Below, in pieces: positions 1-10,754 of a DNA stretch of 11,122 nucleotides. Numbering within the stretch: position 1 is the stretch's first letter; each line of letters starts with the position of its first letter. The notes below the pieces were generated by a model. It searched no databases, was not told the DNA's origin, and worked only from the letters and a program-made list of their open reading frames with translations. Source of the DNA: a bacterium. GTDB taxonomy: Bacteria; Zhuqueibacterota; Zhuqueibacteria; Oceanimicrobiales; Oceanimicrobiaceae. The stretch spans positions 1 through 11,122 of the forward strand of contig JBBIIG010000094.1 in NCBI GenBank assembly GCA_037446635.1, in the 5' to 3' direction. The translations under genes were made by a program, and so were the position numbers.

Positions 1-19
1 CCTCGCCCAAAAGCGCTAA

Positions 20-103
20 GGAGGGCTAGTCCTAATTGGTAAGGCAGCGGTCTTGAAAACCGCCGGGAGTAATCCCTTGGGGGTTCGAGTCCCTCGCCCT
101 CCG
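20..103 (+). tRNA. tRNA-Ser, anticodon TGA (class II, long variable arm; CCA not encoded)
   Basis: Acceptor stem GGAGGGC(20-26)/GCCCTCC(96-102), discriminator G103. Anticodon arm GCGGT-CTTGAAA-ACCGC. Variable arm GGGA-GTAA-TCCC. T arm GGGGG-TTCGAGT-CCCTC. Followed by CTA, not CCA. Confidence 0.93.
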
Positions 104-105
104 CT

Positions 106-342
106 ATGCATTACGTCTATGTATTGAAAAGTGAGAAGACGGGCCGTCTGTATAAGGGTTCGACGAGTGATTTGCCGGCTCGGGTAAAATCACATAATCA
201 GGGAAAAGTAAGATCGACAAAGGCAGGGCGGCCGTGGGTTCTGGTTTATCATGAGGAGTACGCAGACAAAACCGCAGCGCGCAAGCGGGAGTTGTTTTTA
301 AAGAGTGGTTCGGGGAGAAGATTTCTCCAGAGTGTTCTTTGA
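106..342 (+). CDS. Stand-alone small GIY-YIG nuclease (UPF0213-like), 78 aa
   Basis: MHYVYVLKS...LYKGST..L.AR.KSHN.G....TK..RPW.LVY.E.Y.....A.KRE.FLKSG.GR matches the small GIY-YIG pattern, with the conserved Tyr/Gly/Arg/His/Glu positions present (YIG appears as YKG). Confidence 0.92.
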   Translation: MHYVYVLKSEKTGRLYKGSTSDLPARVKSHNQGKVRSTKAGRPWVLVYHEEYADKTAARKRELFLKSGSGRRFLQSVL

Positions 343-349
343 AGTGTGG

Positions 350-423
350 AATTGGTAAGGCAGCGGTCTTGTCCGCGCAGCGGATCCGCTGAGGCGGAAA
401 AACCGCCGGGCGCAATTTGCCTT
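350..423 (+). pseudogene. Internal fragment of a tRNA-Ser(TGA) (D-loop to variable arm), interrupted in the anticodon
   Basis: 350-371 is identical to 34-55 (22 nt) and 399-410 is identical to 56-67 (12 nt), separated by a 27-nt insert. A variable-arm-like GGGC-GCAA-ttt-GCCT follows. No acceptor stem and no intact T arm. Confidence 0.88.
372..398. repeat. 27-nt palindromic insert TCCGCGCAGCGGATCCGCTGAGGCGGA
   Basis: Terminal inverted TCCGC/GCGGA enclosing the perfect 14-nt palindrome CAGCGGATCCGCTG. Boundaries are defined exactly by comparison with the intact tRNA at 20-103. Confidence 0.88.
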
Positions 424-484
424 AAGGTCGCTGTTCTTTTAAGCAAATTGTCGTCTATCGAATACTTAAGCGACTTAGACGCCC

Positions 485-571
485 GGAGAGGTGGCCGAGT
501 GGCTGAAGGCACAGGTTTGCTAAACCTGCGTAGGGGTAACTCTACCGTGGGTTCGAATCCCACCCTCTCCG
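485..571 (+). tRNA. tRNA-Ser, anticodon GCT (CCA not encoded)
   Basis: GGAGAGG/CCTCTCC acceptor stem, discriminator G571, anticodon arm CAGGT-TTGCTAA-ACCTG, long variable arm, GTGGG-TTCGAAT-CCCAC T arm. Confidence 0.96.
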
Positions 572-593
572 CTTCTTATTGTTGGTTGGTGAA

Positions 594-2102
594 ATGAATG
601 TCCGAGTAAAAAACCCCTCGGTTTCCCCTTTCAAGCAGGGGGGAGAAAACGAGGTTCGCGTGCGGTTCGCGCCGAGTCCAACTGGGTTTTTGCACGTGGG
701 CGGCGCGCGCACGGCGATTTTCAACTGGCTGTTTGCGCGCAAGCATCGCGGCCAGTTTTTTTTGCGGATCGAAGACACCGACGTCGCCCGCTCCGGCGAA
801 GAAATGGTGCGCGCCATTTTCAACGGGTTGCAGTGGCTGGGGTTGGATTGGGATGGGGAGGTGGTTTTTCATTCTCAGCGGTTTGGAGTGTACAAAGTCC
901 TGGCCGAGCAACTGGTTCAGCAAAAAAAAGCCTATCGCTGTTTTTGTTCGGCGGAGAAACTGCAAGCGGATCGCGAGCAAGCCGTTCAAGAAAAGCGGAC
1001 CTATAAATACGATCGCGCCTGCCTGCGATTGAGTGAAGATGAGATTCGCGCGCGAGAAAGCGCTGGCCAGCCCTACGTGATTCGCCTCAAAGTTCGCGAC
1101 GGCCAAACGGCATTTCGCGACGCGGTTTACGGCGACGTCAAGTTTGAAAATCAGCAGCTCGATGATTTTATTTTGCTGCGCAGCGACGGCCTGCCCACTT
1201 ATCATTTGGCGGTGGTGGTGGACGACAAGCACATGCACATCACCCACGTGATCCGCGGCGACGATCATCTCTCCAACACGCCAAAACACATTTTGCTCTA
1301 CGAGGCGTTTGGGTGGGCGCCGCCGGTGTTTGCGCACGTGCCGCTTATTTTGGGGCCGGACAAGCAACGGCTGAGCAAGCGCCACGGCGCAACTTCAATC
1401 GAGGAGTACGAAAAGGCTGGTTATCTTCCCGACGCTGTCTTTAATTTTTTGACGCTGCTGGGCTGGTCGCCCGGAGACGATCGCGAAATTTTTTCGCGAG
1501 CCGAACTAATTGAGGCGTTCGATCTCTCCGGCATTTCCAAAAAGAGCGCGGTGTTCGACGAGCGCAAATTGGAATGGATGAACGGCCAGTATTTGAACGC
1601 CATGAGCGTCGAGGAATTCGCCGTGCTGATGATAAAGAGATTGCAGGAAGCTGGCTTGCCTGATGTTGGAAAAAGTGAGGTATGCTCGAAAGTTGCGGCG
1701 CTGATTAAACCCCGCGTCCGCCGCCTCACGGAAATTCCGGGGATGACCAGCTACTTCTTCCACGACCCGGTCAGTTACGACGAAAAGGGCGCCGCCAAAT
1801 ACTGGCGGGATGCGGAGGTGGTTTCCGTGTTTGAGCAAATTAGCGATCGGCTTGCCGATTTAAACGTTTTCAACGCGGCAAATATTGAGCATGTGTTCCG
1901 GTCGCTGGCAGAAGAATTGGGCGTCCCTGCGGCCCAAATTATCCACCCGACGCGTTTGGCTTTGACCGGACAAACCAGCAGTCCGGGGCTGTTTGAGATC
2001 ATTGAAATTTTAGGCAAAGACACGGTGGCGCGGCGGCTGCAAAAAGCAGTTGCTTTCTTGCAAATTCATACTCCAGCCATTCAAGCTGCCGCTGAAGTTT
2101 AG
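594..2102 (+). CDS. gltX: Glutamate--tRNA ligase
   Basis: VRVRFAPSPTGFLHVGG (HIGH motif), LRIEDTD, AYRCFC...YDRAC, THVIRGDDH, RLSKR (KMSKS-like), and a C-terminal anticodon domain (RLALTG..SSPGLFE). ATG at 594 is preferred over TTG at 579. Confidence 0.98.
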   Translation: MNVRVKNPSVSPFKQGGENEVRVRFAPSPTGFLHVGGARTAIFNWLFARKHRGQFFLRIEDTDVARSGEEMVRAIFNGLQWLGLDWDGEVVFHSQRFGVYKVLAEQLVQQKKAYRCFCSAEKLQADREQAVQEKRTYKYDRACLRLSEDEIRARESAGQPYVIRLKVRDGQTAFRDAVYGDVKFENQQLDDFILLRSDGLPTYHLAVVVDDKHMHITHVIRGDDHLSNTPKHILLYEAFGWAPPVFAHVPLILGPDKQRLSKRHGATSIEEYEKAGYLPDAVFNFLTLLGWSPGDDREIFSRAELIEAFDLSGISKKSAVFDERKLEWMNGQYLNAMSVEEFAVLMIKRLQEAGLPDVGKSEVCSKVAALIKPRVRRLTEIPGMTSYFFHDPVSYDEKGAAKYWRDAEVVSVFEQISDRLADLNVFNAANIEHVFRSLAEELGVPAAQIIHPTRLALTGQTSSPGLFEIIEILGKDTVARRLQKAVAFLQIHTPAIQAAAEV

Positions 2103-2586: not shown

Positions 2587-4389
2587 ATGTTAAGAAAAAT
2601 ATTTCTGTGGTGCGGTTTTGTTTTGCTCGCGGCTGCCACTGATTCCGCGATGGCCAAGTCGTACCGACTCGACCGAGTCGTCATCATGGGTGAAGTCACC
2701 GCCCATGGCAGCTTAAAGATCGAGGAGTCGCGAACCTACTCTTTTCGCGGCCGTTTCAGTTGGGCCGACTATCGTCTGCCGCTCGACGAGTTGGGAACCG
2801 TGACAGATTTCTCCCTGCGCGAAGACTCGCAAGTATATCGCATGGTCGCCAACAAAGACCCCGGCACCTACCAAGTCGAGCAGAGCAATAGCGAATTTTA
2901 CGTGAAGTGGTTTTACCGCGCGCGAAACGAAACCCGCACGTTCGTTCTGAATTACACCGTTACTCATGCGGTCACGAAATATGCGGACGTGGCGGAATTG
3001 TACTACAAGTTTATCGGAGAAGCCAATCCCAAAGCGATTGACTCAGTCCGCGTCAGCATCCGCTTGCCGCAGCCGGCAGACACCGCCTTTGTGAGAGCCT
3101 GGGCGCACGGACCGCTGTGGGGCGAGCTTCGTTTCGAAGGGGGTCAAATCGCCATGAACGCCTCTCCGTTACCGGCCCGACGTTACTGGGAGGCGCGAGT
3201 CGTTTTTCCCAACTCATGGTTGGACGACGCCCTACCCTCTAATAGCGAAGAAAGGCTGCCAGCTATTCTCGCCGACGAGCAGCGCTGGGCGCGCGAAGCC
3301 AACGAGCTGCGCCAGCGCGAATTGCAGGATTTGGCGGAGCGCCGCGAGAACGAGAGGAAAGCCTGGCCGATTGCCGCCGCGATCTCAGCCGCTGGACTTC
3401 TGGGAATTGCGTTGCTTTATCACAAGTTCGGCCGCGGCTACGACGTGCCCTATCGTCAAAAAATCGATTCCACGATTCCCGATGATATCCATCCCACGTT
3501 GGCCAGTTACCTCTATTATCAAAAACAGATGACCGGCAATGCGCTCATGGCCGCCCTGCTCCATCTCGCTAATCGAGGTTACCTCAAAATTGGAGAACAA
3601 CCTGCGGCGACGGGCGGGAGGCGATTCGGTGCAAAGAAGCCGCGCTTCATGATTCAGCTCGAAAATCCAGATTGGCGGTTCGATTCCTCCCTCATGAACT
3701 TTGAAGCCAGCCTGCTGGAGTTTCTTTTCGATGAGCTCGCCAACAAAAGCGGCCAGCTTGATATCGATGATTTCTGAATGAATCATCGCTAAGTGCGCAA
3801 ATGGTTTAACGAGTGGCAGAAGATGGTGAAAGGCCACGTTCACGGCCAGCCATTTTGGGACCGCGCGAGCATCAAAGGCACGCTCATGGCAATCGGGCTG
3901 GGAGCCGTGGTTGTTGGCGCCGGCATCGTCATCAATATCAAGCTTGGGCGTCCGGGAGGGCTGGCGATTGTGAGCGGATTGGTTTGCTGCGGTCTGGCTT
4001 TCACCATCTTGCGTTACACTCCGGAAATGAAGCTCCTGCGAAAAAGACTCCAGGCTTTACGGAGATATTTAAAAACCTACCATTCCCGCACCACACGAGG
4101 ACAGAACATCCTGCAAAATATTCAGAACTATTTGGTCTTTGCCGTGGCGCTGGGCGTCGGCGCAAGCGTCATACAACGGCTTCTCGAAACCGTGCCCGCC
4201 TATCAACACCAGGTGTACTTTCCGTGGTATGCCGCGGGCGCCCACGCCGCGACCGAGAATTTTGCGGCGGCCGTGTCTTCATTTGTTTCGGTTGCCAACA
4301 GTTCCATGAGCTCGGCGGCGGGAGTGGGCGGCGGCGCGTCCGTTGGCGGCGGAGGCGGCGCTGGCGGGGCAGCGGGCGGCGCCGGATAA
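2587..4389 (+). pseudogene. DUF2207-like membrane protein (600 codons) interrupted by two in-frame stops; pseudogene or base-call error
   Basis: ORFs 2587-3777 and 3793-4389 share one frame (..DIDDF*MNHR*VRKWF..). Signal peptide, KSY.., DVAELYYKFIG, RAWAHGPL.G, TM segments, YLVFAVALGV and a Gly-rich tail GGGGGAGGAAGGAG are typical of DUF2207 proteins. Confidence 0.82.
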
Positions 4390-8580: not shown

Positions 8581-9768
8581 ATGACTCGGCTGCAACAAAT
8601 TCACGCTAAATCAGAGCGCCTGGTCCTCGGCCTCATGTCTGGCACTTCGGTGGATGGCGTCGATGCGGCGTTGATCAAAATAAAAAATAGCGGCGTGCAG
8701 ACCCAACTGGAGGTGCTGCGATTCATCACCTTCCCCTATCCCCCCGGCTGCAAAGAGAAAATTTTGGAAGTCTCAGCGCCCGGCCGCGGCGCCGTCGATG
8801 ACATTTGCCGCATGAATGTTGTAATCGGCGAAATCTTCGCGGAAGCAGCGTTAACGCTCATCCGCGAGGCGGGGCTTTCTCCGCCGCAAATTGATCTGAT
8901 CGGCTCCCACGGCCAAACCATCCACCATCTTCCCAATGAAATCGAAATGTTCGGCTACAAAATTCGGGCGACCTTGCAATTAGGCGAACCGTCGGTGATC
9001 GCCAAACGCACCGGCATCGTCACCGTCGCCGATTTCCGTCCCGCCGATTTAGCCTTAGGGGGACAGGGTGCGCCGCTGGTTTCGTATTTTGATTTCATTT
9101 TATTTCGATCAACCGAAAAACATCGCGCGCTGCTCAATTTGGGCGGCATCGCCAACTTCACGATTTTGGAAAAGAACTGCCGCATCGAAGACGTGATCGC
9201 GTTCGACACCGGCCCCGCCAACATGCTCATCGATGCGTTGATGCAGCGAATGTTCAACGAGCCGTTTGATCGCGATGGCCGGGCCGCGCAAGCCGGCAGA
9301 GTGAGCGAAGAATTACTGGCGATCGCTTTGAGCCATCCTTATTTTAAAAAGCCGCCGCCCAAATCGACCGGCCGCGAAGAATTTGGCGCGGATGTTTGCA
9401 GCCAATTTTTACAAAACGCCCTGCGCATGAACGTTCCGCCAAACGATATGATCGCAACGGCGGCAGAGCTCACGGCCCGCACGGTCTGGCAAAATTATCG
9501 CGATTTTGTTGAGCCGAACATCACGGTGGATGAGGTGATCGTCAGCGGCGGCGGCGCAAAGAACGGCTTTATCATGAATTCGCTGCGGGAAAAATTTCAC
9601 GGCGTGGAAGTAAAGCTGATCGACGATTTTGGCATCCCGTCCGACGCCAAAGAAGCGGTGTGTTTCGCGGTGCTGGCCAACGAGACCATCGCCGGCAACC
9701 CCAGCAACGTGCCCGCCGCTACCGGCGCGGGCCAACCAACGGTTTTGGGAAAGATTTGTTTATTATGA
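8581..9768 (+). CDS. anmK: Anhydro-N-acetylmuramic acid kinase
   Basis: GLMSGTSVDGVD, IGSHGQT, DFR..D.A.GGQGAPL, NLGGIAN, FDTGPAN, PPKSTGREEFG, GGGAKN, KEAVCFA; adjacent to murQ. Confidence 0.97.
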   Translation: MTRLQQIHAKSERLVLGLMSGTSVDGVDAALIKIKNSGVQTQLEVLRFITFPYPPGCKEKILEVSAPGRGAVDDICRMNVVIGEIFAEAALTLIREAGLSPPQIDLIGSHGQTIHHLPNEIEMFGYKIRATLQLGEPSVIAKRTGIVTVADFRPADLALGGQGAPLVSYFDFILFRSTEKHRALLNLGGIANFTILEKNCRIEDVIAFDTGPANMLIDALMQRMFNEPFDRDGRAAQAGRVSEELLAIALSHPYFKKPPPKSTGREEFGADVCSQFLQNALRMNVPPNDMIATAAELTARTVWQNYRDFVEPNITVDEVIVSGGGAKNGFIMNSLREKFHGVEVKLIDDFGIPSDAKEAVCFAVLANETIAGNPSNVPAATGAGQPTVLGKICLL

Positions 9769-9779
9769 GGTTTCAAATC

Positions 9780-9810
9780 TCTTTACTAAACCTTAAAGGT
9801 TTAGTAAAGA
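9780..9810. repeat. Perfect 14-bp inverted repeat between anmK and murQ
   Basis: TCTTTACTAAACCT(9780-9793)-TAA-AGGTTTAGTAAAGA(9797-9810). Confidence 0.85.
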
Positions 9811-9842
9811 TTAAGTAAAGATGAATTCAAAGCAAGTTTATT

Positions 9843-10754
9843 ATGAGCGACGACGTATTCAACGAAATCAAAGATCTGATCACCGAAGCGCGCAATCCCG
9901 CCTCCGAAGAGATCGACGTCAAAACTACGGAAGAAATTCTGCGCATCATCAATAATGAGGACAAAAAAGTCCCATTTGTTGTCGAGACCGAGATTCCTTA
10001 CATCTCGCAGGCGGTGGAGATTCTGGTGGCGGCGTTCAAAAACGGCGGGCGGCTTTTTTATATCGGCGCCGGCACCAGCGGCCGGCTGGGCGTGCTGGAC
10101 GCCGCCGAATGTCCTCCCACCTTTGGCACCCAACCCGAAATGATCCAGGGCATCATCGCCGGTGGAGCCGAAGCGCTGGTGCGGGCGCAGGAAGGCAGCG
10201 AGGATCGCGGCGAGGACGGCGTGCGCGATATTTTGGCGCGCGGCTTCAACGAAAAAGACGTTTTGTGCGGCATCGCGGCCAGCCGCCGCACCCCGTATGT
10301 GTTGGCAGCCCTGAAAAAGGCGCGGGAGTTGGGCGCCAAAACCATCTTTGTCACCTGCAATCCCCGCAGTGAATTGAATCTTGAAGTGGATGTGGCCATT
10401 TGTCCGGTGGTGGGCCCGGAAGTGGTGATGGGCTCCACGCGCATGAAAGCCGGCGCCGCCACCAAATTGGTGCTCAACATGCTCACCACCGCCGCGATGA
10501 TCCGCCTCGGCAAAGTTTATGGCAACATGATGGTGGACTTGCAGATGAATTCCCGCAAATTGGAGGAGCGCTCCAAGCGCACGGTGATGATGGTGACCGG
10601 CGTGGATTATAAACACGCGGAAAATGTTTTGCGGAAAGCGCAGGGGCACGTCAAAGCCGCGCTGGTGATGATCCTCGCCGGCGTGGATGCCGACGAAGCT
10701 CGCCGGCGGCTGCAAGTCAGTGACGGCTTTGTGCGCCGGGCAATTGGGAAGTGA
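9843..10754 (+). CDS. murQ: N-acetylmuramic acid 6-phosphate etherase
   Basis: TEARNP, GAGTSGRLGVLDAAECPPTFG, GIAASRRTPYV, GPEVVMGSTRMKAG, MIRLGKVYGNMMVDL...N.KL..R. Confidence 0.97.
   Translation: MSDDVFNEIKDLITEARNPASEEIDVKTTEEILRIINNEDKKVPFVVETEIPYISQAVEILVAAFKNGGRLFYIGAGTSGRLGVLDAAECPPTFGTQPEMIQGIIAGGAEALVRAQEGSEDRGEDGVRDILARGFNEKDVLCGIAASRRTPYVLAALKKARELGAKTIFVTCNPRSELNLEVDVAICPVVGPEVVMGSTRMKAGAATKLVLNMLTTAAMIRLGKVYGNMMVDLQMNSRKLEERSKRTVMMVTGVDYKHAENVLRKAQGHVKAALVMILAGVDADEARRRLQVSDGFVRRAIGK

Follow-up and report, generated by a model that had tools for sequence, protein, structure and literature searches.

How REP-like palindromes arise and spread with no transposase has long been an open question, and mobility of a nuclease together with its hairpin has only been hypothesised, for Ssn. 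Rickettsia palindromic elements are short palindromes that occur as in-frame insertions in protein genes. SsnA of Neisseria meningitidis is a GIY-YIG nuclease that is associated with NTS/SRM hairpins (Chenal et al. 2025, PMC11893778). Its authors noted an insertion-sequence-like layout and raised the possibility of a mobile origin, and they found NTS rarely within genes (2%; PMC11893778). REP/RAYT and IS200/IS605 are summarised in the same source as hairpin-nicking systems. SegB cleaves both DNA strands within a 27-bp site over the T-psi-C arm of a tRNA gene and homes between phages (PMC2330249). Stand-alone Slx1-like/UPF0213 GIY-YIG proteins are described as conserved, as lacking a C-terminal Asn and as probable repair enzymes (PMC1564403). 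In CPR rRNA genes, non-intron GIY-YIG insertions are scattered in stem-loops, and homing was judged unlikely to account for them (PMC11270868).

The DNA analysed here, termed the window, is a stretch of 11,122 nt (contig JBBIIG010000094.1 of assembly GCA_037446635.1) from a bacterium of the Oceanimicrobiaceae. Near its left end a 78-aa GIY-YIG gene lies between an intact tRNA-Ser(TGA) gene and a partial copy of the same tRNA (Table 1). This layout, proposed in a preliminary description, was confirmed by ARAGORN, Rfam, Pfam and exact repeats. The hairpin that splits the partial tRNA copy is also precisely inserted at dozens of other sites in the genome; therefore the locus is likely a selfish element made of an enzyme and a hairpin.

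Table 1. Features at the left end of the window, in nucleotides from its first letter
Feature	Position	Strand	Remarks
Leader of tRNA-Ser(TGA)	1..19	+	Equals the final 19 nt of contig C90 (same genome)
Intact tRNA-Ser(TGA), without encoded CCA	20..104	+	ARAGORN, Rfam
78-aa single-domain GIY-YIG nuclease gene	106..342	+	ATG 1 nt past tRNA call
End of stop codon and linker, weakly like tRNA-Leu 5' end in D-loop register	341..349	+	
Duplicate of tRNA-Ser(TGA), D-loop to anticodon G35	350..371	+	22 nt identical to 34-55
27-nt GC-rich double mini-hairpin in anticodon loop	372..398	+	Member of genome-wide family
Remainder of tRNA duplicate, then breaks off	399..415	+	12 nt match resident tRNA (399-410 identical to 56-67)
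AT-rich inverted repeat, start of spacer toward tRNA-Ser(GCT)	413..450	.	
tRNA-Ser(GCT), host gene, ancestral neighbour of Ser(TGA), outside cassette	485..572	+	ARAGORN, Rfam

The intact tRNA-Ser(TGA) is the only intact copy in the genome. The partial copy starts 7 nt past the nuclease stop codon, and the chance expectation for a 22-nt repeat within 400 nt is about 5e-9. It spans D-loop to variable arm and lacks the acceptor stem and the T arm. The 17 nt at its 3' side are identical to the variable-arm allele of 3/28 relatives, a better match than the resident allele. The 9 nt in front of the fragment resemble a tRNA-Leu 5' end, a resemblance equalled by 30/1500 random linkers (p about 0.02). 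This linker is a possible relic of an earlier target and is treated as a lead only. Together with the foreign variable-arm allele it hints, weakly, at target switching and exchange between copies.

The absence of an integrase, a transposase and an intron, pointed out in the preliminary description, held for the 9 window ORFs scanned and for bases 1-2600. Unlike integrase-type tRNA islands, the locus has no integrase among the 9 ORFs, and its duplicate runs from D-loop to variable arm and not to the 3' end. Unlike group I or group II tRNA introns, the insert in the tRNA copy is only 27 nt long, matches no Rfam intron family and interrupts an incomplete tRNA copy. No sigma70-like promoter was found in window 1-700. 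The GC3 of the nuclease gene is 0.49, vs 0.64 in gltX.

The remainder of the window was also inspected. After gltX there are tRNA-Gln(CTG) (2110-2183) and tRNA-Arg(TCG) (2403-2477), with a short repeated GTTTCACG motif in the spacer. A DUF2207 membrane-protein gene (2587-4389) has two in-frame stops at about 3775-3792 that split DUF2207_C, and is either a pseudogene or affected by an assembly error. The anmK-murQ peptidoglycan-recycling pair (8581-10754) is ordinary. In the N-terminus of gltX (597-660), a hairpin at about 604-645 is read as peptide between two VRV words. The gltX N-termini of relatives are unrelated and mostly shorter, and this hairpin is possibly another in-frame palindromic insertion.

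The protein encoded at 106-342 matched the Pfam GIY-YIG family (PF01541) at 1.6e-14, and residues Y5, Y16, G18, R26, H30 and E62 are invariant in 45 homologues. The structure model has a pLDDT of 96.9. Its closest folds are the UPF0213 protein 1ZG2 and Slx1 (TM 0.71, rmsd 2.2 A), which come before I-TevI and UvrC; the best matches by sequence and fold are 1ZG2, 1YWL and Slx1. The ORF stops where the catalytic domain stops, and it carries neither a C-terminal Asn nor a C-terminal DNA-binding module. At least 30 differences between alleles fall within the gene, and among those listed 22/30 are at third codon positions. The third-position excess is consistent with a working protein. We class the protein as a Slx1-like (UPF0213) single-domain GIY-YIG nuclease with an intact active site, outside the Ssn-like group.

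Like the prokaryotic Slx1-like/UPF0213 proteins, the window protein is a minimal domain without the C-terminal Asn (PMC1564403). In contrast, no tRNA-duplication or hairpin context appears in the accessible text of that paper. The window nuclease is 36–42% identical to the two Ssn-like proteins of the same genome. A 100/100 branch separates it from six Ssn-like proteins in a tree of 47 rows and 86 columns, which was built without SsnA and the CDD model cd10448; "Ssn-like" is our own label, and one of the six has SRMs on both sides. The two Ssn-like genes of the genome (C6:91719-91946 and C4:20504-20722) each have their own flanking hairpin family. Four Y1_Tnp genes and one DUF559 gene are likewise flanked by distinct repeats. 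NCBIfam, PADLOC and PHROG yielded no family match for the nuclease, and the ESM Atlas returned generic GIY-YIG clusters only. A search of viral contigs with the single protein gave 23 pattern stretches, none of which was confirmed as a relative, and the alignment of homologues contained no conserved seed for such a search.

Exactly 27 extra bases part the 22- and 12-nt matches to the resident tRNA. They sit between anticodon G35 and A36, without target duplication and 30 nt behind the nuclease stop, and fold with a z of -2.7. The pattern is TCCGC-N3-GCGGATCCGC-N4-GCGGA. With up to 6 mismatches allowed there are 48 copies in the genome, and 5 shuffles gave none at 5 mismatches. A pattern search found 54, so that about 50 copies exist overall. 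Among 61 genomes searched, the pattern was confined to the genus, with 40 occurrences in this genome, 5 elsewhere in the genus and none in the 59 other relatives. The same-genus genome has hairpins and no assembled Ser(TGA) locus. One viral contig (827 nt) contains the 27-mer pattern.

An exact empty site exists elsewhere in the genome for 15/48 copies, many of them from the same few repeat families. At C2:4821, a copy adds 9 residues within the motif NYPNPF|NP, which is uninterrupted in 60 paralogues. ORFs of 300 aa or more, not all of them verified genes, contain 22/54 copies. In this the hairpin differs from NTS, for which only 2% lie in genes (PMC11893778). From these sequences, the 27-nt hairpin is a genome-wide insertion element in its own right that is precise, duplication-free and compatible with reading frames. 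Only 20/48 copies lie in a stem-loop, vs 12.6% at random, so loop targeting is a bias and not a rule. The idea that the 27-mer always occupies a hairpin apex was ruled out by the same count. A second palindrome family of 19 nt has 22 copies in the genome.

Nine candidate mobiliser genes in the genome were compared, namely 4 Y1_Tnp, 3 small GIY-YIG and 2 DUF559 genes. A 27-mer copy lies within 6 kb of the window nuclease alone; repeats of other kinds flank most of the remaining candidates. The link between enzyme and hairpin is suggestive and not proven because it rests on one gene in the genome. The pair resembles REP/RAYT, IS200/IS605 and the Rickettsia palindromic elements in having palindromes without target duplication, one enzyme per repeat family and in-frame insertions in protein genes (the hairpin-nicking systems as summarised in PMC11893778). 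Unlike REP/RAYT, the candidate enzyme is GIY-YIG and not HUH/Y1, and 0/4 Y1_Tnp genes have the 27-mer within 6 kb.

The first 19 nt of the window recur at the very end of contig C90, and the assembly has 10 such exact overlaps between contig ends. The C90 end is probably located directly upstream of the window. It consists of a sigma70-like promoter, the leader, another interrupted tRNA-Ser(TGA) copy, whose 27-nt insert is identical and which stops after the variable arm, and then a second such promoter and leader. The 58-nt promoter and leader duplication around this copy occupies C90:12404-12646 (L235). Reading from C90 into the window, the locus probably runs from a promoter through an interrupted tRNA copy, another promoter, the intact tRNA, the nuclease gene, the second interrupted copy and the spacer to Ser(GCT) and gltX. 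Because of the promoter repeat, the assembly breaks at this point and the number of units is uncertain. The preliminary description had drawn the partial copy accurately but had missed both its 27-nt hairpin insert and the second broken copy on C90.

Contigs of four runs (of 13 listed) were compared with window 1-1500. Runs X1 and X2 are probably one data set filed twice, so that X1/X2, X3 and X4 make three apparently distinct sets. A single contig covers 56-377 in X1/X2 (13 differences), 75-379 in X3 (54 differences) and 193-409 in X4 (31 differences); all three cross the gene-fragment junction into the 27-nt insert, which the X4 contig contains in full. No contig from X1–X4 covers the full 1-1500 stretch. 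These independent contigs have the same order at about 82–96% identity. In X1/X2, an extra 19-nt hairpin, a variant of the second palindrome family, lies in the T-loop of the upstream, gene-adjacent tRNA copy (window position 86). X3 has a second form, in which the gene end (340) joins via 32 nt to 475 and the fragment is absent. Contig depth in X3 is 64.9 on the nuclease gene and 21.2 on gltX, which hints at an array and is not a copy number. Relatives with about 90% identity in gltX retain the nuclease gene here. Persistence at the site also fits slow vertical inheritance.

Other relatives have the site empty. The nuclease gene was encoded in 0/29 loci from relatives, and the distance from Ser(TGA) to the next tRNA is 6–131 nt in the 28 relatives where it was called, vs 380 nt here. 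The DNA of the nuclease gene had a match in 0/124 other genomes of the class. Some GIY-YIG match was present in 37/61 genomes, the best non-self match being 48% identical. Judged against these empty sites, the nuclease gene has evidently been inserted between the two serine tRNA genes. Filled alleles (X1/X2, X3, X4) and empty alleles thus occur at one site. Such alleles are also a feature of the GIY-YIG homing endonucleases SegB and I-TevI, but the window family uses many sites, and the window ORF lacks the C-terminal DNA-binding module of these enzymes.

Homologues were collected from GTDB genomes (best 80 of 104 loci, 39–61% identity, many phyla) and from metagenomes (best 80 of 181 loci). 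tRNAs were counted from a strict ARAGORN run because a run that allowed introns gave many spurious calls. A tRNA or tmRNA lies within 300 nt in 45/80 GTDB loci (best 80 of 104), vs 2/67 distal control windows, and the nearest one is on the same strand as the gene rather than the opposite strand by 51 to 1. Among the metagenome loci (best 80 of 181), 25/80 have a same-strand tRNA. Of 75 non-identical loci with a same-strand tRNA, the window included, 39 have a partial tRNA duplicate across the gene and 36 have none. The preliminary description had suggested a minimal element that settles at tRNA genes and leaves a dead copy behind, and had proposed the flanks of homologues and the Ser-Ser site of related genomes as places to look. 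The enrichment of tRNAs and duplicates next to homologues and the empty Ser-Ser site in 28 relatives both support that suggestion.

An insert of at least 12 nt is present in 26 of the 39 duplicate-bearing loci. By heuristic region labels, 18/31 inserts are in the D arm and 7 in the anticodon loop. Upstream duplicates start at tRNA base 1 in 29/29 cases, and downstream duplicates reach the 3' end in 8/10. The window copy appears to be a downstream duplicate that was cut short at its 3' side. The emphasis that the preliminary description had placed on a duplicated tRNA middle is correct for the window, where the copy runs from D-loop to variable arm, but the middle is no special signature, as fragments beside homologues reach tRNA base 1 or the 3' end. 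Double mini-hairpins resembling that of the window were seen beside 17/170 homologues, vs 1/263 controls. L111 and L116, which rank with the closest homologues, are among the 17. The window's own 27-mer gave 1 poor match beside 187 other homologues. A generic 6-bp hairpin test separated poorly (38/78 loci vs 32/141 controls).

Many homologues are bounded by repeats. Direct repeats were found in 25/78 GTDB loci vs 0/141 controls, and inverted repeats in 22/78 GTDB loci vs 2/141 controls and in 18/68 metagenome loci vs 0/83 controls. There was no tRNA, direct repeat or inverted repeat in 14/78 GTDB loci and 27/68 metagenome loci. The inverted-repeat forms interrupt 16S/23S rRNA in 5/9 loci tested. 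In the same genus as the window, two GIY-YIG relatives, each bounded by inverted repeats, split an integrase gene (Phage_int_SAM_4 and Phage_integrase; L193, G001:C522), and the first of these copies is broken. Relatives of the window protein thus occupy rRNA sites like those described in CPR bacteria. The account of those sites in PMC11270868 covers rRNA only, with "tRNA" 0 times in its accessible text, and there proposes no mechanism.

Some further loci deserve mention on their own account. In L036 and L189 (786-875), a homologue lies in a 16S rRNA insertion with a group II intron D1-D4 piece. L040 had looked like RNase P RNA by eye, but Rfam did not bear this out, and the assignment was dropped. 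Two tRNA-Ala loci, L030 and L060, contain an inverted-repeat-bounded gene plus a gene-less hairpin built from the ends of that form, which points to a route by which non-autonomous hairpins could originate.

At the level of sequence, the insertion, the duplicate, the hairpin family, the intact active site and the recurrence across phyla are all evident. The explanation that we consider probable is a selfish nuclease-hairpin cassette, whose enzyme would, by prediction, nick DNA at stem-loops and in this way spread both itself and the 27-nt hairpin. Transcription of the nuclease gene would start at the promoter of the tRNA operon, which lies on C90. The ATG of the gene is placed 1 nt past a tRNA without encoded CCA, which suggests leaderless translation after 3' processing; the message would then be a near-leaderless trailer released from the tRNA. 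The enzyme would nick single-stranded or cruciform DNA, either at its own hairpin or at the stem-loops of a tRNA; we propose this action on hairpin or cloverleaf DNA by analogy with SsnA (PMC11893778) and Slx1. From such nicks, host recombination could make tandem duplications of part of the tRNA plus the gene, insertions of the hairpin at loops, and conversions of empty alleles. One intact tRNA would have to survive, which would account for hairpins being seen only in spare copies. The "middle" fragment of the window probably remains from a longer array whose 3' part was lost.

Other explanations were weighed against this cassette. The gene may have arrived by ordinary recombination as a passive passenger, with the hairpins moved by a REP-associated Y1 transposase or an Ssn-type nuclease and merely accumulating in a dispensable tRNA copy. 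The genome does encode suitable agents (4 Y1_Tnp, 2 other small GIY-YIG and 2 DUF559 genes), the 27-mer is often nested inside other repeat families, and the 19-nt palindrome family (22 copies) also landed in a relative's spare tRNA copy. However, 0/8 of the other candidate genes have the 27-mer within 6 kb and most have repeats of their own, and passive arrival leaves unexplained both the strand bias of 51:1 and the inverted-repeat-bounded gene copies that lie within rRNA and integrase genes. We regard a passenger as rather unlikely. The nuclease might instead be a domesticated, Ssn-like host factor that cuts incoming hairpin-bearing ssDNA and tunes recombination, with the tRNA site as a safe, expressed home. 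SsnA cuts ssDNA beside its own hairpin and lowers Neisseria transformation (PMC11893778), the window gene looks to be under purifying selection, and about 50 cognate hairpins are available genome-wide. The patchy presence of the gene, the repeated duplication scars on both sides and the insertion of relatives in essential RNA genes all fit selfish spread better, so a domesticated role appears unlikely. Such a role and a selfish cassette are not mutually exclusive.

A system that acts on RNA seems very unlikely. Here the nuclease would be a tRNA-directed toxin or an RNA-guided nuclease, and the broken tRNA copy a decoy, antitoxin or guide. Gene and fragment are co-oriented and probably share one transcript. 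The tRNA isotype also clusters on the protein tree (33 changes vs at least 52 in 200 shuffles, 78 rows), a weak signal because kin share labels and kinship alone can produce clustering. Against this, the length, side and insert of the fragment vary freely, the fragment lacks acceptor stem and T arm, neither PADLOC nor PHROG gave a match, and SsnA is inactive on RNA according to PMC11893778. The guide or decoy role for tRNA-like RNA that the preliminary description had put forward is likewise unsupported, since many relatives have no tRNA, among them those that lie within 16S/23S rRNA and integrase genes away from any tRNA. Finally, the duplicate could have arisen from mis-joining, since the locus lies at a contig end where the 58-nt promoter repeat broke the assembly. 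This is extremely improbable. The tRNA copies differ in the variable arm, and the joint between gene and fragment is spanned in other samples by contigs that differ from the window at 13, 54 and 31 letters. For the gene-fragment junction these contigs refute an artefact, and with it the misassembly that the preliminary description had named as a threat to its reading.

The selfish nuclease-hairpin cassette works like the Ssn/SRM and RAYT/REP pairs, but it departs in tested features from Ssn, homing endonucleases, integrase islands and REP/RAYT. It shares with Ssn a small single-domain GIY-YIG gene, a short genome-wide hairpin and the equivalent catalytic Tyr/Tyr/Glu (PMC11893778). Unlike Ssn, SRM is absent from window 1-900 and the C90 end and was found in 3/188 homologue flanks (shuffle mean 0.95, range 0–3), counts obtained with a narrow motif that missed the C6 Ssn-like gene of this genome too. 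The window nuclease also sits in tRNA duplications, and the word "tRNA" is absent from the main text of PMC11893778. Like SegB of phage T4, it is a free-standing, intron-less GIY-YIG gene in a tRNA cluster, and SegB spreads at a tRNA sequence (PMC2330249). Unlike SegB, the window protein is a bare catalytic domain, is chromosomal, had no relatives in the viral contigs searched and is accompanied by partial tRNA duplicates and hairpins. No description of GIY-YIG cassettes in partial tRNA duplications was retrieved in a literature search whose scope excluded most subscription papers.

A broader reading is possible, and we offer it tentatively. The clade of ~80-aa Slx1-like GIY-YIG proteins may be the sole mobility enzyme of undescribed, ultra-small elements. 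Autonomous copies would reside in genes for tRNA, rRNA and proteins, with inverted repeats or partial duplications of the target at their edges. Below them would stand non-autonomous hairpin families of 19–30 nt, each paired with one enzyme lineage and inserted precisely, often in-frame, so as to remodel host proteins. Switching of targets between tRNAs might proceed via microhomology shared in the D-loop.

What is new here is a hairpin that is confined to one genus, has empty sites and in-frame insertions, and is tied to one candidate enzyme. The locus offers a clean test set, in which a single enzyme and a single 27-nt hairpin of one genus come together with precise empty sites elsewhere in this genome and with proteins that bear in-frame insertions. 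If the proposal is true, it would give a role to abundant "hypothetical" GIY-YIG genes, would provide a possible source of very small hairpin-specific nickases, and would explain pseudo-tRNAs in many uncultured bacteria.
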